This document shows positions 3,607 through 58,420 of a DNA stretch of 64,000 nt, in pieces. Each line of letters opens with the position of its first letter. Within the stretch, counting starts at the first letter, position 1. The DNA lies in the NCBI GenBank assembly GCA_017547755.1, contig JAFYOX010000107.1, positions 22,040 through 86,039 on the forward strand, in the 5' to 3' direction. Under the pieces are notes generated by a model that ran no database searches, was not told where the DNA came from, and worked only from the letters and a program-made list of their open reading frames with translations. A program made the translations under genes and the position numbers. Source of the DNA: Clostridia bacterium. Its GTDB lineage: Bacteria; Bacillota; Clostridia; Oscillospirales; CAG-272.

Positions 3607-4608
3607 TCAGTCTCCCATGTATTCTTTCGCCGTGTCGATCAGGGCGATGAGGTTTTCGTACGGGACGTCGGGCATGATCTCCTGCGACGGTGCAGTGATA
3701 TAACCGCCGTTTTTGCTCATCAGCTCGACGACGCGGCGGGTTTCACGGCGGACTTCGTCCGGAGTTCCGTTCGGAAGGATCCGCTGGGTGCTGATGCCTC
3801 CGAAATACGTGAGTTTATGCCCGTATTTTTCCTTGAGTTCGGCGAGATCCATGCATTCCGGCTGAACGGGATTGAGACCGTCCACGCCGATCTCGCACAG
3901 ATCGGGAAGGATCGCGTCGATCTTGCCGCAGGAATGGACGAAGACGTCCTTCTTCATGCTGTGGACAAGTTCGTATTCCATGCGTTCGCCTTCGCGGATG
4001 AGATTTGTCCACGACTGCGGCGACATCAGCAGACCGCGCTGGGTACCCCAGTCGGAGCCGAGAAGAACGCCGTCGATGTCGGGCGAAACGAGGAAGTTTT
4101 CGAGCATGACCATATTTTTGCGGATGATCATATTGAGAAGGCGCGCGGCGAATTCCGGTTCCCCGGCGATGTCGGCGAGGAAGTTTTCAAGACCGCGTGC
4201 GAAATAGGCTTTTTCGAAGTGGCTGCCCCAGATGGTGACCAGCTGATAGGCGTCGAAATTTTCGCGGAGGTATTTCCAGTGATTGAAGGAATCGCCGTAG
4301 GAACCGTAGCCGGCGGTGTACGGCAGAAGCGTCGGAGCTTCTTCGGTCGAATAATCTTCCGGGAAGGAATGCCATCCCCACCACGGCGCGTTGACGTAGA
4401 GCATGCAGTTGCCGATGGCGAGGGAGTAGGCTTCCACGAGATTCAGACGTCCGGCTTCGAATTCTTTTTTTACGTTGGCATCGCCGTAGCGTTCGATCAG
4501 CTTCGGACCGTAGAGGTCGTTGCTTTCGGGCGCGAGGATGATGGTGTAGGGCACTCTGCCGGTATTTTCGTGCGCGAGCGCCTGTTTGAGAATTTCACGT
4601 CTTGTCAT
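3607..4608 (-). CDS. Uroporphyrinogen decarboxylase (URO-D)-like family protein, function unknown in this context
   Basis: 333-aa ORF. The C-terminal half (VFVHSCGKI..LPDLCEIGVDGLNPVQPECMDL..GGIST) resembles the URO-D/MtaA TIM-barrel family. There is a 1-nt gap to the GH130 gene. Confidence 0.65.
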   Translation of the reverse strand: MTRREILKQALAHENTGRVPYTIILAPESNDLYGPKLIERYGDANVKKEFEAGRLNLVEAYSLAIGNCMLYVNAPWWGWHSFPEDYSTEEAPTLLPYTAGYGSYGDSFNHWKYLRENFDAYQLVTIWGSHFEKAYFARGLENFLADIAGEPEFAARLLNMIIRKNMVMLENFLVSPDIDGVLLGSDWGTQRGLLMSPQSWTNLIREGERMEYELVHSMKKDVFVHSCGKIDAILPDLCEIGVDGLNPVQPECMDLAELKEKYGHKLTYFGGISTQRILPNGTPDEVRRETRRVVELMSKNGGYITAPSQEIMPDVPYENLIALIDTAKEYMGD

Positions 4609-12303: not shown

Positions 12304-12311
12304 TTTTTCTC

Positions 12312-12401
12312 GGGGAAACCTTTTTTGAAAAAAGGTTTCCCCGAACCCTTTCCAAAAAACTTTATACTATGAAAAAAGACAAAGTAAGTGCAAATTTGAA
12401 G
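12312..12401 (+). repeat. Dispersed palindromic repeat, copy B (core + tail + distal box)
   Basis: Core GGGGAAACCTTTTTTGAAAAAAGGTTTCCCC at 12312-12342. Tail GAACCCTTTCCAAAAAACTTTATAC at 12343-12367. Distal box GACAAAGTAAGTGCAAATTTGAAG at 12378-12401. Confidence 0.9.
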
Positions 12402-12437: not shown

Positions 12438-12552
12438 CTTCAAATCTGCACAAACTTTGTCTGTCATTTTTGTTTGAATGTTTTTGAAAAGGGGGGCAGC
12501 TCCGATTTGCGGAGCAAATCGGGGAAAAACTTTTTTCAAAAAGTTTTTCCCC
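12438..12552 (-). repeat. Dispersed palindromic repeat, copy C (inverted relative to B; has an inserted GC hairpin)
   Basis: Distal box at 12438-12461 (reverse complement GACAAAGTTTGTGCAGATTTGAAG). Reversed tail GTTTTTGAAAAGGGG. Hairpin GCTCCG-ATTTG-CGGAGC at 12499-12515. Core GGGGAAAAACTTTTTTCAAAAAGTTTTTCCCC at 12521-12552. Confidence 0.9.
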
Positions 12553-12564
12553 GGAAAACTCCAT

Positions 12565-23763: not shown

Positions 23764-23821
23764 CCGGGGGAAACTTTTTTGAAAAAAGTTTCCCCCGGAC
23801 CCCTTTCAAAAAACTTCAATC
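23764..23821 (+). repeat. Dispersed palindromic repeat, copy E (between ruvA and ruvB)
   Basis: Core CCGGGGGAAACTTTTTTGAAAAAAGTTTCCCCCGG and tail ACCCCTTTCAAAAAACTTCAATC. Confidence 0.9.
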
Positions 23822-27573: not shown

Positions 27574-27609
27574 CGTGGGAAAAACTTTTTGAAGAAAGTT
27601 TTTCCCACG
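27574..27609. repeat. Dispersed palindromic repeat, copy F (core only)
   Basis: CGTGGGAAAAACTTTTTGAAGAAAGTTTTTCCCACG, 6 nt past the symporter stop. Confidence 0.75.
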
Positions 27610-27615
27610 AAAACA

Positions 27616-32095: not shown

Positions 32096-32260
32096 AACAG
32101 CCTCGGAAGTCATAGAATAGATGCTTTGATTATAGCGCAAAATCGCGGCGGTGTCCATAGAAAAATCATACTCTTTGGAAAGAATTCCTAAAAATCCATT
32201 CCCAAAATGAAAAAATTATGCTATAATGGAATCAACTTTATTACACGAAAGGATAAAACC

Positions 32261-33640
32261 ATGATAACCAAAGCATTGCTGGAAGAAGTTCTCGCGAAAG
32301 CCATGTCCACCGGCGCGGATTTTGCCGAAATTTTCGTTGAGAACACCCGTTCCAACTCCATTTACATGATCGACGGCCGTGTCGACAGCATCACGGACAA
32401 CACCATCGCCGGTGTCGGTATCCGTGCGCTTCTCGGCGTACGCTGTGTCAGCGCGTCCACGATCGACCTTTCCAGAGAGGGTCTGCTCCGCTGTGCGGAA
32501 CAGGTAGCGGACGTCATCGGCGATCACCCGACCGCACTGGACATCCACCTCACCGAACGCATTTTCCCCGACATCCACGCGGTAAAGATCGTTCCCGATA
32601 CCGCAAAGAAGGCGACCAAGATCGACCTGCTCAAGGCAGGCTACTTCGCCGCAAAGAATTACAGCGACGATATTTCCCAGGTCTCCGCAAACCTTCTTGA
32701 CGTTGACCACAACATCCTCATCGCCAATTCCGACGGTCTGTACACCGAAGACCGCCAGATCCGTACCCGTATGGGTGTCAGCGCGATCGCAAGCCGCGGC
32801 GGTGAAACGCAGTCCGGCGGCATGAGTCCCGGACGCCGCATGGGTCTGGAAGTGTTCGATCTCTTCCCGCCGGAAGAAATCGGTAAGGAAGCGGCGCGTC
32901 ACGCGCTCGTCAACCTCAGCGCAGGCTACTGTCCCGCAGGCAAGATGCCCGTTGCCATCGAAAACGGCTTCGGCGGCGTTATTTTCCACGAAGCGTGCGG
33001 ACATTCCCTTGAAGCAACGTCCGTTGCAAAGAATACTTCCCAGATGGCGGGCAAGCTCGGTCAGAAGATCGCCAACGAAAAGGTCACCGCGATCGACGAC
33101 GGCACCATCCCGAACGGTTGGGGCTCCATCAACATCGACGACGAAGGCACGCCGTCCCAGCGCAAGGTGCTCATCGACAAGGGCGTCCTCAAGTCCTACA
33201 TGATCGACAAGCTCAACGGCCGCCGCATGGGTATGCAGGAAAACGGCTCCAGCCGCCGTCAGAGCTTTGCACATTCTCCGACCTCCCGTATGACCAATAC
33301 CTTCATTGCTCCCGGCGAAGACAAGAACGAAGACATCATCGCGTCCATTGAATACGGTCTGTATGCGAAGAAGATGGGCGGCGGTTCCGTCAACCCGATC
33401 AGCGGCGCGTTCAACTTCGCGGTCAGCGAAGCATACATCATCCGCAACGGCAAGATCTGCGAACCGGTGCGTGCAGCGTCCCTCATCGGTACGGGTTCCG
33501 AAATCCTGCAGAACATTGACATGGTCGGTTCCGATATGCAGACCGGACAGGGTATGTGCGGCTCCGCATCCGGCTCCATCCCGACCGACGTCGGTCAGCC
33601 TCTCATCCGCGTCAGCGAAATCACGGTCGGCGGACGATGA
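32261..33640 (+). CDS. tldD: TldD family metalloprotease
   Basis: 459 aa. HEACGH zinc motif. Start MITKALLEEVL (track start 32207 is an extension). Confidence 0.9.
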   Translation: MITKALLEEVLAKAMSTGADFAEIFVENTRSNSIYMIDGRVDSITDNTIAGVGIRALLGVRCVSASTIDLSREGLLRCAEQVADVIGDHPTALDIHLTERIFPDIHAVKIVPDTAKKATKIDLLKAGYFAAKNYSDDISQVSANLLDVDHNILIANSDGLYTEDRQIRTRMGVSAIASRGGETQSGGMSPGRRMGLEVFDLFPPEEIGKEAARHALVNLSAGYCPAGKMPVAIENGFGGVIFHEACGHSLEATSVAKNTSQMAGKLGQKIANEKVTAIDDGTIPNGWGSINIDDEGTPSQRKVLIDKGVLKSYMIDKLNGRRMGMQENGSSRRQSFAHSPTSRMTNTFIAPGEDKNEDIIASIEYGLYAKKMGGGSVNPISGAFNFAVSEAYIIRNGKICEPVRAASLIGTGSEILQNIDMVGSDMQTGQGMCGSASGSIPTDVGQPLIRVSEITVGGR

Positions 33641-33752
33641 GTGTGAATGTTTAGAGAGTGCAAGTCAATGTGAAGCGGATTCACACTCGAAAGAATTCCT
33701 TGAAAAATGGGACCAGCCATTTTTCATTGCCTTCGGCAACCGGAATTCTTTC
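33639..33752 (+). ncRNA. Highly structured intergenic RNA/DNA element between tldD and pmbA (4 perfect helices)
   Basis: H1: GAGTGTGAAT (33639-48) pairs with ATTCACACTC (33679-88). H2: GAAAGAATTCC (33689-99) pairs with GGAATTCTTTC (33742-52). H2 encloses H3, GAAAAATGG/CCATTTTTC (33702-25), and H4, TTGCC/GGCAA (33727-39). Confidence 0.5.
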
Positions 33753-33780
33753 AAGAATCTTGTGATTTTTAGAGGTAACT

Positions 33781-35133
33781 ATGGAAAAATTTGATATTCT
33801 GAAGAAAATCGTAAAGGAATGCTCCGAAAAACTCGGCATTGCCGAATACGAACTGTATTATTCCGAAAGCTCCGGCATCCGCGCGGAAACCTTCCGCGAC
33901 GAGATCAGCGCGTTCTCGTCCAGTGTGGGCGGCGATCTGCTCTACCGCTGCATCGTGAACGGCAAGCTCGGCTACGCAAGCACGCAGTACCTTGACGAAT
34001 CCGAAATGGAAAAGCTCGTTGCACGCGCGGCGGAAAACGCTTCCGTCATCGAAAAGGATGAAGAAGCGATCATCTACGGCGGTGCGGCACCGGAAGCTTA
34101 CCGCAAGGTTCCCGAATGCAAGTTCACCATGCCGAGCGCGGCATTTATCCGCGAACGTGCGATGAAGAACCGCAATCTTCTTTACGCGGCAGACGGACAG
34201 ATTGCGGACGGCACCGCATCCGGCGCATCCGCGGGACAGAGCCGTACCTTCCTGTTCAACTCCAACGGGCTGGATCTCTCCAGCTTTACCGGAAGCGAAG
34301 GCGAATTCTTCCGCGTTGTTCTTGACAACGGCGAAGAAAAGCAGACCGGCGGCGAATATCTCCCGAACGGCTTCGAAAAGTCCGACGACGAACGTACGGA
34401 AAAGATCGAAAAAGCGATCAAGGAAGCACGCGCAAAGTTCGGCGCGGGTACCGTGAAGACCGGCAAATACAATATCGTATTCAAGAACGACCAGATGGAA
34501 GCGATCCTCTCCACGTTCCTCTCCGCATTCTATGCGGACAACGTACAGAAGGGTCTGTCCCAGCTGAAGGGCAAGCTCGGCGAACAGATCGCGTCCGACT
34601 GCATTACCATCACGGACGACCCGTTCGCGGAAGACAATACCGTACAGGTACCGTTCGACGGCGAAGGCGTTCCGACGTACTGCAAGAACGTTGTGGAAAA
34701 CGGTGTGCTGAAGACCTATCTCTACAACCTCATGACCGCAAAGAAGGACGGCGTCGAAACCACCGGCAACGCATCCCGCGGTTCCGCGTCGATCGGCACG
34801 AGAGTTTACACCTTCTACATCAACAAGGGCGAAATGACCCGTGAAGAACTCCTGAAGAAGGCCGGAAACGGTATTTACGTCACCGGAATGAAGGGCTTCC
34901 ATGCTGGCGCGAACGCTGTCACGGGCGACTTCTCCATCGAAAGCGAAGGCTTCCTTCTTGAAAACGGGGAAATCGGCGCACCGGTCAAGTCGTTCACCGT
35001 TGCGGGCAACTTCTTCGAACTTCTGAAGCAGATCACCGATCTCGACAACGAACTCGACTTCGGCGGTCCCGGCGGTACGAGAATCGTCGCACCCGACGCC
35101 CTTGTACCCGGAATGTCCGTTGCAGGGGAATAA
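33781..35133 (+). CDS. pmbA: PmbA/TldE family protein (TldD partner)
   Basis: 450 aa with TldD/PmbA fold signatures and no HExxxH motif. SD AGAGG. Confidence 0.85.
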   Translation: MEKFDILKKIVKECSEKLGIAEYELYYSESSGIRAETFRDEISAFSSSVGGDLLYRCIVNGKLGYASTQYLDESEMEKLVARAAENASVIEKDEEAIIYGGAAPEAYRKVPECKFTMPSAAFIRERAMKNRNLLYAADGQIADGTASGASAGQSRTFLFNSNGLDLSSFTGSEGEFFRVVLDNGEEKQTGGEYLPNGFEKSDDERTEKIEKAIKEARAKFGAGTVKTGKYNIVFKNDQMEAILSTFLSAFYADNVQKGLSQLKGKLGEQIASDCITITDDPFAEDNTVQVPFDGEGVPTYCKNVVENGVLKTYLYNLMTAKKDGVETTGNASRGSASIGTRVYTFYINKGEMTREELLKKAGNGIYVTGMKGFHAGANAVTGDFSIESEGFLLENGEIGAPVKSFTVAGNFFELLKQITDLDNELDFGGPGGTRIVAPDALVPGMSVAGE

Positions 35134-35144
35134 ACGTCTGTATT

Positions 35145-35250
35145 CCTCAGATCTGCACCCGACATTGTCAATAAAATAGTATAAAAGTTTTTGAAAAGGG
35201 GTCCGGGGAGAAACTTTTTTCAAAAAGTTTCTCCCCGGAAACTCCATTTT
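35145..35250 (-). repeat. Dispersed palindromic repeat, copy G (distal box + tail + core, reverse orientation)
   Basis: Distal box at 35145-35169 (reverse complement GACAATGTCGGGTGCAGATCTGAGG). Reversed tail GTATAAAAGTTTTTGAAAAGGGGTC. Core CGGGGAGAAACTTTTTTCAAAAAGTTTCTCCCCG at 35204-35237. Flank GAAACTCCATTTT is shared with copy C. Confidence 0.9.
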
Positions 35251-35268
35251 ATAAAGGAGGACAGAACG

Positions 35269-36123
35269 ATGTTACAGCAGTTTCCCAGAACAATGGTCGG
35301 CGGCGTATCGCTGCCGAGAATTCTGATCGGTACGAACTGGCTGCTTGGCTGGAGCCATACCGGCGCGGCGGCAGACAAGGCGATCCAGGAACGGTACCAG
35401 AAGCCGGAGGATTTCTATCCGGTCTTCCGTGCATATCTGGATCACGGGATCAATGCCGTCATGGGGCCGATCAGTTCCATTCCGCTCGCGCTGAACGCGG
35501 TGCGCTATGCGGAACAGAAGTACGGTCAGAAGATCATCATCATTGACACGCCGGCGCTCGATGTAGACGACACGCCGGAAGCGCGTGCAAAGGCAAACGC
35601 CACGGTGAAGAACAGCGCGGCGTCCGGATGCACTTTCTGCCTGATCCACCACACCAGCCAGGAACAGCTCGTCAACAAGAACAAGGAAGAGATCACCCGT
35701 CTGCCGGACTATCTTGCGATGATCCGTGACGCCGGGCTGATCCCCGGTCTGTCCGCGCATATGCCGGAAGCCATCCTTTACAGCGACAAGAACGGCTACG
35801 ACGTGGAAACGTACATCCAGATCTTCAACTGTATGGGCTTCCTCATGCAGGTCGAAGTAGAAGCTGTTGCGAAGATCATCCGCAATGCGAAGAAGCCCGT
35901 TATGACCATCAAGCCGTTTGCGGCAGGACGCACCACGCCGTTCATCGGTCTCAACTTCAACTGGAACGTCCTCCGTCCGTGCGACATGATCACCATCGGC
36001 GCAGGCACCGAGCTTGAGGCACGCGAAGATATCGAATATTCCTTCGCCGCACTCGAACGCCGTGCTCCCGACGTCGAAGGCCGCGGTTCTCCCGTCAATC
36101 AGGAAGTCCTCGGTCATATGTAA
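35269..36123 (+). CDS. Conserved hypothetical protein (284 aa), family not recognised
   Basis: The ATG at 35269 follows AAAGGAGG. The track start at 35191 reads through repeat G. Alternating beta/alpha-like pattern. No diagnostic motif recognised. Confidence 0.6.
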   Translation: MLQQFPRTMVGGVSLPRILIGTNWLLGWSHTGAAADKAIQERYQKPEDFYPVFRAYLDHGINAVMGPISSIPLALNAVRYAEQKYGQKIIIIDTPALDVDDTPEARAKANATVKNSAASGCTFCLIHHTSQEQLVNKNKEEITRLPDYLAMIRDAGLIPGLSAHMPEAILYSDKNGYDVETYIQIFNCMGFLMQVEVEAVAKIIRNAKKPVMTIKPFAAGRTTPFIGLNFNWNVLRPCDMITIGAGTELEAREDIEYSFAALERRAPDVEGRGSPVNQEVLGHM

Positions 36124-55537: not shown

Positions 55538-57436
55538 ATGAAACATAAAGTTGTAGACATCGTATGTCTTTCTCTGGCTGCTGCCATGTTCGGCAGCGTT
55601 GCGCTTCTCAATCTTGTTCAGCCGAACCGTCCGACGGAATCGGCGATGGAACAGCGCAAACTTGCGGAGATGCCGGCGTTTTCGCTGAAATCTCTTGCGG
55701 ACGGTTCGTTCTTCTCCGGAACCTCCGTCTTTGTGTCCGACACCTTCCTGTACCGCGACCAGCTGGTCGGACTTTCCAAGAAAATGGATACGCTCCGCGG
55801 CATCGATTACTCCGTCGGCGGCGAAGAGGACAGTTTTGTTCTTCTTGATAACGCGACCGGTGCGTCTGCCGGAGACGATGAAGCGGCAAACGCGGCTGCG
55901 GATCAGATCGCGGCGGCGTTCGACAGCCTTCTGAACCAGACGCAGACGGAATCCCCTGCGGAAGAAACTCCGGCGGTTCCGGAACTCACTGCGGAAGAAG
56001 AAATTGCTGATGAAGTGATCACGGAAGAAGCGGTGGTTCCTGCAGGCGAAATCACCGAAGAACCCGAACCGGAACCGACACCCGAGCCGGAAATTCCGGC
56101 GGAAGCGGTCGTCGATATCCCCGATGAAAATCCTGCGGAGAAAACTCCTGAGGCTCCCGCACCGGAAGTTCCCGCAGAACCCGCGGAACCCGCAGAACCG
56201 GAAGTTCCTGCAGAACCCGAAGCTCCCGCGGAACCGGTGGTTACCGCGATCCATCTGACGAAAAACAATCTCAAGCTGACCGTCGGCAGCGGTGCCGTGG
56301 TCAATGCGACGGTGGATTCCAACGGACATTCCGGAGCGAAGGTACGCTGGTCCATTTCCGATAAAAATGTTGCGACCATTGCAATGAATCCGAACGGCGG
56401 CATCGACGTCAAGGCAGTTGCGGAAGGCACCTGCACGCTGACCTGTTCCGCCGGAGAAGGGGATGCGAAGATCCAGCAGAAATGCGAGATCACGGTCAGC
56501 GCGGTCATTGCCCAGACGCCCGCAGAAGATGCCGGTCTGACGGCGGACTTCCTGCCGGACGGTCTGTTCATCTACGGTGACGGCGTTTACACGCAGGCAT
56601 ATTATTCCGCGACCAACTCGCAGAACTACGCCCAGACAGCGGCATATTACAAGACCCTGTTCGGCGCGGATACCCGCGTGAGCATGGTCATTGCACCGGT
56701 TTCCGCGATGGTGATCGACAATCCGACGGTCACGTCGAAGATCCCGGATCAGAAGGACATTCTCGACAAGATGGCGGCGTTCGTGGATCCCTCGGTCAAT
56801 TTCGTTGACGCATACACGGAAATGTACGAACACCGCGACGAATACCTCTTCTTCAAGAGCGACCACCACTGGACGGCGCGCGGCGCGTACTACGCGTACT
56901 CCGCGTTTGCGAAGTCCATCGGTCTCGAACCGACGCCTCTGGACGGCTTTGACTACAATGTCATGAACGACAGCTATCACGGCAGTATGTACAACTACAC
57001 GTATGACGCCCGTGTAAAGAATTTTGTGGACACCATCGAAGCATTCTTCCCGCGCAAGGCGCATACGATGACGATATCCGCGATCGGCGGTGCGACGTAC
57101 AATTACAACACCTCCATCGTCAGCACGAACAAGACGTACGTGACCTTCATCGCCGGAGACAACCCGTACACGGTCATCAACGTTCCGGAAAATCCGCAGG
57201 ACTTCAACGTACTGGTTCTGAAGGACTCCTTCGGCAACGCGTTTGTCCCGTTCCTGTGCGAACATTACGGCAACATCATCGTTGTGGACACCCGCCATTC
57301 CGGCATGAACGTCTATGAACAGCTGAAGGATTACGGTCTGTCCGACATTATTTTCGTGAACAACATTCAGGCGGCGAACTCGGCTTCGTGGTACAGTATG
57401 TACATGAAGGCGGTCGGCGTGAACATCGGCGGATGA
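55538..57436 (+). CDS. DHHW family protein with N-terminal TM, Pro/Glu-rich linker and Big_2 Ig-like domain
   Basis: 632 aa. FFKSDHHWTARGAYYAY motif and VLKDSFGNAF. Big_2-like segment ITAIHLTKNNLKLTVGSGAVVNATV...CTLTCSA. Confidence 0.8.
   Translation: MKHKVVDIVCLSLAAAMFGSVALLNLVQPNRPTESAMEQRKLAEMPAFSLKSLADGSFFSGTSVFVSDTFLYRDQLVGLSKKMDTLRGIDYSVGGEEDSFVLLDNATGASAGDDEAANAAADQIAAAFDSLLNQTQTESPAEETPAVPELTAEEEIADEVITEEAVVPAGEITEEPEPEPTPEPEIPAEAVVDIPDENPAEKTPEAPAPEVPAEPAEPAEPEVPAEPEAPAEPVVTAIHLTKNNLKLTVGSGAVVNATVDSNGHSGAKVRWSISDKNVATIAMNPNGGIDVKAVAEGTCTLTCSAGEGDAKIQQKCEITVSAVIAQTPAEDAGLTADFLPDGLFIYGDGVYTQAYYSATNSQNYAQTAAYYKTLFGADTRVSMVIAPVSAMVIDNPTVTSKIPDQKDILDKMAAFVDPSVNFVDAYTEMYEHRDEYLFFKSDHHWTARGAYYAYSAFAKSIGLEPTPLDGFDYNVMNDSYHGSMYNYTYDARVKNFVDTIEAFFPRKAHTMTISAIGGATYNYNTSIVSTNKTYVTFIAGDNPYTVINVPENPQDFNVLVLKDSFGNAFVPFLCEHYGNIIVVDTRHSGMNVYEQLKDYGLSDIIFVNNIQAANSASWYSMYMKAVGVNIGG
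55949..56236 (+). repeat. Coding low-complexity Pro/Glu/Ala-rich linker (imperfect tandem PAEP/PEPE units)
   Basis: Translates to ..EEPEPEPTPEPEIPAE..APAPEVPAEPAEPAEPEVPAEPEAPAEP inside the DHHW gene. Confidence 0.8.
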
Positions 57437-58311: not shown

Positions 58312-58329
58312 GGAAAAATGGAGATTATT

Positions 58330-58420
58330 GGGGAAACCTTTTTTTCGAAAAAGGTTTCCCCAAACCCTTTCCAAAAAACTTCAGACAAAAAAGAATGATA
58401 AAGTTTGTGCAGATTTTTCG
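58330..58420 (+). repeat. Dispersed palindromic repeat, copy J (core + tail + distal box)
   Basis: Core GGGGAAACCTTTTTTTCGAAAAAGGTTTCCCC at 58330-58361. Tail AAACCCTTTCCAAAAAACTTCAGAC ends at 58386. Distal box GATAAAGTTTGTGCAGATTTTTCG at 58397-58420. Confidence 0.9.

Follow-up and report, generated by a model that had tools for sequence, protein, structure and literature searches.

We describe a folded insert that lies between tldD and pmbA in a 64-kb stretch of contig JAFYOX010000107.1 from a Clostridia bacterium (this whole stretch is called the window below, and all coordinates are window positions). The insert, 133 nt at 33639..33771 on the + strand with a GC content of 0.40, is probably a copy of a rare, non-autonomous, structured element, mobile or horizontally copied, of ruminant-gut Clostridia and their phages, and not an ancestral part of the operon; its best description is an undescribed, rare kind of small structured mobile DNA. 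The element comes and goes at two unrelated junctions between a stop codon and a Shine-Dalgarno (SD) sequence, among near-conspecific bacteria and phages, with one architecture of about 130-134 nt of AT-rich non-coding sequence, namely a hairpin (H1), a three-way junction and a short variable tail. We refer to its copies as W (window), L (the L001 variant), P1 (L083/L143) and P2 (L166); all of the sequence data are metagenome assemblies.

Filled and empty alleles at the tldD-pmbA junction

The limits of the insert follow from comparing filled and empty alleles with identical flanks. Five contigs that lack the insert, L161-L165, match the window's DNA at 95-97% over tldD and pmbA, and their PmbA proteins are 98.7-99.1% identical to the window's. 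Their empty site reads CGA TAA TCACGAGTGGAGGTAACT ATG, with an 18-nt spacer, and no single-nucleotide polymorphism (SNP) separates them from the window over the 130 nt before and the 110 nt after the junction. Aligned, the empty sequence ggcggacga TAA tcacgagtggaggtaact ATGGAAAAA stands against ggcggacga TGA (gtgtgaatg...gattttta) gaggtaact ATGGAAAAA in the window, and 133 nt (33639-33771) stand where the empty allele has the 11 nt AATCACGAGTG. The window's tldD stop codon (TGA, 33638-40) takes its T from the host and its GA from the insert, and this GA forms the first bases of H1, as the first-pass annotation had noticed. On the right, a SNP in GAGGTAA(C/T)T follows the host lineage, placing the insert's boundary to its left; the leftover host spacer GAGGTAACT (33772..33780, + strand) makes, together with A33771, the pmbA SD sequence AGAGG at 33771-75, ahead of the ATG at 33781 and, as that annotation had it, about 20 nt downstream of the 114-nt structure it singled out. 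With the insertion the spacer grew from 18 nt to 140 nt, and the SD went from GGAGG to AGAGG. The empty alleles with identical flanks show the 114-nt structure to be the core of an insert of 133 nt, which a small hairpin (H5) and a variable tail extend past the core to 33771.

Also empty are L157-159 (PmbA 97.3% identical to the window's in amino acids), L155/156, L150, L151 and L002. In a second bacterial clade, formed by L001 and L160, the insert sits at the same tldD|pmbA boundaries. The PmbA proteins of the window (P0122) and L001 (P0121) fall into one 90%-identity cluster, the two pmbA genes are about 86% identical in DNA and third codon positions in the flanking genes about 70%, and the nearest relatives of L001, L155 and L002, are empty. 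L160 shares 92.7% DNA identity with L001 and differs from it at 5 of the last 13 nt of tldD, yet its insert is the L001 variant without a single substitution, apart from a precise 27-nt deletion of the H3 hairpin. A single ancestral insertion followed by vertical descent is out, each filled lineage being nested among empty ones; the filled state is therefore not monophyletic, and from these sequences it would reflect repeated insertion into one target, exchange of filled alleles by recombination, or both.

To a chance palindrome or an assembly artefact we give a negligible probability: the metagenomic origin of all the data is the only point for it, and it has to contend with an insert sequence that is identical in three independent assemblies (window, L081, L082), with variants in L001, L160, L143 and L166, with empty alleles on more than ten independent contigs, and with fold z-scores of about -5. 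The window PmbA protein itself has an exact match on two more ENA contigs.

Beyond close relatives, we scanned one genome per species and recovered 80 tldD loci, from metagenome-assembled genomes (MAGs) of gut Clostridia, many of them ruminant, 78 of which include pmbA. Among these 78 related species the median tldD-pmbA spacer is 12 nt, 67 spacers are 25 nt or shorter, which bears out the first-pass statement that the pair is usually tightly linked, and the usual short spacer runs from the stop codon through GGAGG to the start codon. Among these loci the 140-nt spacer sequence recurs, besides the window, only in L001 (a goat caecum MAG); the insert is missing from 76 of the 78.

The same junction carries unrelated insertions in seven other lineages, two of them extremely structured. 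In L057, a Faecousia MAG, 172 nt of nested perfect palindromes (4396-4567 of that locus) lie between TAA and GGAGG with a fold z of -7.75, and in L064 a 15-bp perfect hairpin is followed by a second hairpin (4381-4486; z = -5.45). Judging by these two inserts, it seems common in these bacteria for such junctions to harbour structured passengers. The spacers of L075 (159 nt) and L030 (37 nt) have in common a direct-repeat motif, (A)CGGAACTAAA(AA), present in two copies in L075, that may be another small repeat family.

The folded core, its phage copies and compensatory change

The core consists of four perfect helices, at the positions first proposed for them and all on the + strand. H1 joins 33639-48 (GAGTGTGAAT) to 33679-88 (ATTCACACTC) in 10 bp, all Watson-Crick, and forms a hairpin (33639..33688) whose 30-nt loop is variable in its 5' 20 nt. 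It adjoins H2 without a spacer, such that the two may be seen as a coaxial stack of about 21 bp. H2 pairs 33689-99 (GAAAGAATTCC) with 33742-52 (GGAATTCTTTC) in 11 Watson-Crick bp and closes a three-way junction (33689..33752) around H3 and H4. H3 has 9 bp (33702-10 with 33717-25), the loop GACCAG at 33711-16 and an extra pair, T33701-A33726; H4 pairs TTGCC with GGCAA (33727-31 with 33735-39) around the loop TTC. Only three residues in the junction are unpaired, T33700 and C33740-C33741. Both H2 arms contain GAATTC (at 33693 and 33743), as previously noted, and GAAT/ATTC half-sites are repeated in H1 and H2. The 3' tail (33752..33771, + strand), with H5 formed by 33752-55 and 33759-62, is the most variable part among copies.

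ViennaRNA returns the same helices for the 114 nt, at -42.7 kcal/mol; dinucleotide shuffles come to -24.8 +/- 3.5, none of the 200 being as stable (z = -5.17). The complementary strand is equally stable (z = -5.59), the fold of the 151-nt context has a z of -3.26, and the fold z of all copies lies between -5.1 and -5.5. A covariance model (R1) scores the three-way junction at 95.5 bits, with the rest of the window at 22.5 bits or less.

The second target is in phages. When IMG/VR was scanned with a pattern built around the H2 arms, one contig emerged, L083 (the same as L143, in opposite orientation), where an element of the same architecture and on the coding strand lies between the genes for Phage_portal and CLP_protease, a ClpP-type prohead protease (fold z = -5.38). 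Beyond what the search pattern required, L083 and the window have several features in common: H1 with GTGAAT...ATTCAC, H1 abutting H2, and the junction residues T and CC. The H3 loop is GACCAA in L083 vs GACCAG in the window. Among the relatives returned by a portal-protein search, most have the C terminus ...GTGKEE, and one (P0137) ends in ...KEDA like L143; the contig encoding P0137, L166, shares 82% DNA identity with L143 and carries the second phage copy. P1 and P2, at 130 and 131 nt against 133 nt in the window, differ at 4 positions in the first 117 nt and have diverged tails, between flanks that are 82% identical.

Both filled phages have empty relatives. Compared with L143, L169/170 (portal 95% identical in amino acids) are empty with the site GGAAAGGAGGAATAAGAGATGGC; compared with L166, L167 (95.5-97.8% DNA identity) is empty with GGAAAGGAGGATTAAGGAATGGC, and L168 and L144-147 are further empty phage relatives. 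The 11-nt sequence GGAAAGGAGGA stands on both sides of the element in both filled phages and once in the empty relatives, and in each filled phage its right-hand copy continues into that lineage's own downstream sequence. This is an 11-nt target-site duplication, and it regenerates the SD of the protease gene. The element's TGA (in TGCG-TGA-ATG) serves as the portal stop in the filled phages, changing the terminus from ...KEE to ...KEDA. At both loci the element thus has the same orientation and lies exactly at the junction of the upstream stop codon and the downstream ribosome-binding site.

Four of the empty phage contigs (L144, 4297-5322, and L145-L147) carry an insertion sequence (IS) of the IS630 family, with HTH_Tnp_IS630 and DDE_3 domains, the terminal inverted repeat (TIR) GAGCAATTCC and a TA duplication, in the prohead protease gene after codon 6 and 20 nt downstream of the target site used in L143 and L166. 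An origin of our element from it is unsupported: GAGCAATTCC agrees with the H2 arm in only 7 of 10 bases, the duplication is TA, and neither this TIR nor this duplication matches our element.

Comparing window and phage helix by helix, we found two-sided changes in 8 pairs (H1 has 2 of them, H3 has 4 and H4 has 2) and none changed on one side, the H3 loop and the junction residues being conserved; either copy has 36 of 36 pairs Watson-Crick and lacks G-U. Counted by itself, the three-way junction has 6 two-sided changes, a count and a covariation score reached in 0 of 500 shuffles, and sliding the partners by 1-3 columns destroys the pairing; these values rest on two independent lineages and close variants. 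Between window and L001 the three-way junction is identical at 63 of 64 positions and the H1 stems at 20 of 20, set against differences at 10 of 20 positions in the 5' part of the H1 loop and at 5 of about 19 in the tail. H5 shows one compensatory pair (CAAGaatCTTG in the window vs CAGGaatCCTG in L001), and tails differ among W, L, P1 and P2. The core is conserved far above the level of its flanks.

These results bear first on the roles proposed in the first-pass annotation, an element setting tldD:pmbA stoichiometry, a cis-regulator of pmbA translation or a local small RNA (sRNA). Its very stable fold and its place between the genes, with the pmbA SD about 20 nt further on, suit such an operon-specific function, which nevertheless retains very little probability: the insert is missing from almost all orthologous spacers, the close relatives L161-L165 included, H3 has been lost in L160, the same element stands between phage portal and protease genes, and it belongs to no Rfam family and has no convincing promoter or terminator of its own. 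The presence/absence pattern of the alleles leaves this reading largely refuted. The annotation had tied its proposal to conservation or covariation in related genomes; the helices do covary against the phage copies, and the orthologous spacers are not conserved, which in essence goes against it.

A broader functional reading is that the element is a portable, useful RNA module. It would be transcribed as part of the operon mRNA and would either affect how that mRNA is processed or how stable it is (as an RNase III or RNase Y site, for instance, or by blocking 3' exonucleases) or be a translational insulator setting the upstream:downstream protein ratio, and it would spread horizontally because carriers benefit. 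We hold this to be somewhat unlikely. It would account for the like coding-strand orientation at both loci, the coaxial stack of H1 and H2, the lack of a terminator after the element, and a core conserved well above its flanks with covarying stems, and in a clostridial operon intergenic stem-loops reportedly govern processing and stoichiometry (PMC10311766). Against this, the element is dispensable, near-conspecific genomes lacking it and one carrier lacking H3, and it is very rare. The absence of any G-U pair or one-sided change in 72 pairs, with both strands folding equally well, is likewise untypical of selection on RNA only; it argues against selection on RNA alone and fits a structure that forms also in DNA or on either strand.

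The same pairing pattern would also suit a DNA-level site, in which the inverted repeats are protein-binding or recombination sites in double-stranded or cruciform DNA and the RNA fold is a by-product. The GAAT/ATTC half-sites in H1 and H2 point in the same direction, as does the use of one target in two lineages per locus, which suggests site-specific recombination. The compensatory changes in H3 and H4, however, alter sequence and keep pairing, which a folded single strand fits better than a fixed binding sequence; moreover, no recombinase gene is adjacent and a second match to the H2 arm, in the tldD promoter, is due to chance. We regard a purely DNA-level site as quite improbable.

Propagation of the element, points against mobility, and the neighbourhood

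Under the preferred explanation, a rare mobile or horizontally copied element, the branched fold would be needed for the element's own propagation, possibly as a single-stranded DNA or RNA intermediate or as a recognition structure for an enzyme encoded elsewhere. The fold may also make insertion tolerable inside an operon: there is no terminator, the 5' and 3' ends of each domain are adjacent, such that stop codon and SD would lie close in space, and the insert supplies a TGA stop and keeps an SD. Effects on the host operon would be incidental, a looser translational coupling (18 to 140 nt) and a weaker pmbA SD, and altered pmbA expression may be a side effect of the insertion. It is speculation, with one case each, that the 11-nt phage duplication and the 11-nt bacterial loss both stem from 11-nt staggered cuts. 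We regard as unlikely the more specific proposal of an unrecognised class of tiny TIR-less mobile elements that are site-selective and home to the stop-codon/SD junctions of translationally coupled genes of gut Clostridia and their phages by staggered cuts of about 11 nt, with the branched fold and its conserved GACCAR loop being the active single-stranded substrate, or a ribozyme or reverse-transcription template.

A number of observations weigh against mobility. The window holds one copy by blastn-short, nhmmer, a helix descriptor and the covariance model R1 run without filters; the blastn-short and nhmmer searches covered the window and the 80 loci. No further copies turned up in the helix-descriptor scan of 1.2 Mb of related loci or with R1 on 27 loci, eight IMG/VR pattern scans gave nothing beyond L083, and a scan of JGI metagenomes gave no match with exact H2 arms. 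Only two target loci are represented, tldD|pmbA and portal|prohead protease. The element has no TIRs, the first 25 nt agreeing with the reverse complement of the last 25 at 3-6 of 25 end-anchored positions (local-alignment p 0.4-0.99 for W, L and P1); its inverted repeats, H1 and H2, are internal. No transposase, reverse transcriptase or recombinase gene adjoins any copy, and a search for spurious ORFs, with the six-frame translations of W and P1 joined into one chimeric query, matched none of 5.8 billion proteins at E <= 1. The strong conservation of the core could mean a benefit to carriers. Finally, the filled allele could have spread among the bacterial relatives by homologous recombination, a possibility at that site because 11 nt were replaced there and not duplicated.

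Other searches were negative as well. BLAST against GenBank phages and PLSDB plasmids gave no new copy, and the remaining search matches were due to chance, in coding regions or terminators; those in L136/139/142 are a bidirectional terminator and not copies of the element. As the first-pass annotation had stated, the sequence is unrelated to the window's dispersed repeat family, by sequence searches and the covariance model alike, and is not a copy of a generic window repeat. Its failure to recognise a riboswitch or sRNA class likewise agrees with Rfam, which has no gathering-level match in the window; at E <= 10, a search of the window and phage copies returned a best E of at least 1.2, and the sub-threshold matches (snoRNA, U5) are implausible for window and phage copy alike.

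Several candidate identities were rejected. An intrinsic terminator is out, there being no U-tract after H2 in any copy; the phage tail begins CAAAGTCC, and the spacer's only terminator-like call is a weak 5-pair stem. Coding capacity or read-through of the TGA is also out, W and L containing stops and P2 shifting the frame (131 + 11 nt). P1 has an in-frame 41-codon open reading frame (ORF) that ends at the native GKEE and stop, and, read directly from the alignment, each of the 4 substitutions that separate P1 from P2 over the first 117 nt would be non-synonymous in the one long frame. A diversity-generating retroelement (DGR) acting on the H1 loop does not apply: W and L differ there at 10 of 20 positions, and on direct reading these differences are not adenine-specific. 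GAATTC as a restriction-related signal can be dismissed, with 53 sites in the window vs 38 expected. The 12-mer GAAAGAATTCCT of the H2 arm at 32178-89 is not a tldD operator but a chance extension of a conserved promoter: the tldD promoter block is conserved from AATTCC, and the GAAAG part is not kept in L001 or L002.

The promoter itself, TTCCCA-17-TGCTATAAT at 32199-32227, is kept in L001 and L002 and lies inside the ORF that starts, by mechanical calling, at 32207. That start is probably wrong: because the promoter falls inside this ORF and relatives align only from about residue 14-19, the likely start of tldD is the ATG at 32261, preceded by AAAGGA. The gene (32261..33640, + strand, stop TGA 33638-40) encodes all three Pfam PmbA_TldD domains, and the gene caller gives a tldD of 459 aa in L081. 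On the other side of the insert, pmbA (tldE; 33781..35133, + strand) encodes 450 aa with Pfam PmbA_TldD_1st and PmbA_TldD_3rd. Directly 3' of pmbA, an ORF at 35191-36123 (about 284-310 aa) has no Pfam match and recurs at the same position in close relatives, filled and empty (as a 284-aa gene in L081, L150, L151, L157, L160 and L161).

Two repeats elsewhere in the window were noted in passing. Perfect palindromes GGGGAAAACTTTTT..AAAAAGTTTTCCCC are dispersed at 2455-2492, 12310-12347, 12520-12557, 23764-23801, 27575-27612, 35204-35241 and 58329-58366, often flanked by AAAAGGGG and CCCTTTCCAAAAAACTT, and 70 nt separate one copy from the pmbA stop before it; the family has the look of a REP-like (repetitive extragenic palindrome) or terminator-like genome repeat, unrelated to the insert. 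At 56161-56250, 9-nt tandem repeats (ACCGGAAGT / TCCCGCAGA / ACCCGCGGA ...) are probably a repetitive coding segment.

More generally, these alleles illustrate that a regulatory-looking RNA structure in an operon can be a recent passenger, such that presence or absence in close relatives is worth checking before a function is assigned. For small mobile DNA of bacteria, the combination of no TIRs, a branched fold with compensatory changes, reuse of a stop/SD junction and sharing between bacteria and phages is unusual, and the mechanism of mobility, if found, could reveal a new integration chemistry or a trans-acting enzyme. The filled and empty alleles also offer a natural experiment in how much spacing and structure translational coupling tolerates.

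Comparison with known systems

[quoted passage not shown] Like these, our element is shorter than 500 bp, AT-rich and non-coding (copies of 130-133 nt, GC 0.40-0.46 vs 0.55 for the window, no conserved ORF), lies in intergenic positions within a transcription unit, is predicted to give very stable stem-loop transcripts, is polymorphic for presence between close relatives, and, at the phage copies, is flanked by direct repeats. Unlike classical MITEs, it lacks TIRs (4-30 bp in those), is not multi-copy in the sequence searched, uses the same target repeatedly, has no partner IS that we found, and has as its core a three-way junction and not one long hairpin. Its target-site behaviour also differs, with an 11-nt duplication (GGAAAGGAGGA) in the phages and none at the bacterial site, where 11 nt were replaced.

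REPs are 20-40 nt, GC-rich imperfect palindromes present in tens to hundreds of copies. With REPs, the bacterial interspersed mosaic elements (BIMEs) built from them and the hairpin-ended IS200/IS605 derivatives (PATEs), our element has in common that it forms hairpins in extragenic positions, as those often do just after operon stop codons, that the single-strand fold matters, and that classical TIRs are missing. This comparison draws on general background and on the reviews PMC2229807 and PMC3184786 by Delihas. In size, composition and copy number it differs from REP/BIME in every respect. Membership in a REP-like family is out, and the window has a separate palindrome family, GGGGAAAAC...GTTTTCCCC, unrelated to the element. 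Insertion of the IS200/IS605 type takes place 3' of a fixed target of 4-5 nt, makes no target duplication and needs a Y1 transposase; our element does have a hairpin at its left end, as PATEs would, but its left flanks differ (..CGAT vs ..GGAGGA) and its phage copies show the 11-nt duplication.

Integron attC sites also lie between co-directional ORFs, as imperfect palindromes roughly 60-140 nt long that are recognised as folded single strands, and as in our element their structure is conserved more than their sequence. An attC identity is out, however, since there are no core sites: on direct reading the element has neither GTTRRRY/RYYYAAC cores nor extrahelical bases, and it comes without an integrase or a cassette array. 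Its helices are perfect and branched, and its neighbours are tldD/pmbA or portal/protease and not cassettes.

The RNase III sites of phage T7 are intercistronic processing stem-loops. In Ruminiclostridium cellulolyticum, stem-loops between the cistrons of the cip-cel operon reportedly determine how its mRNA is processed and how stable it is (PMC10311766). As in these two systems, our element lies between cistrons, has long perfect helices and could plausibly shift the ratio of upstream to downstream product. Those stem-loops are fixed features of their operons, whereas our element is polymorphic, occurs in unrelated bacterial and phage operons, and is accompanied by a target duplication.

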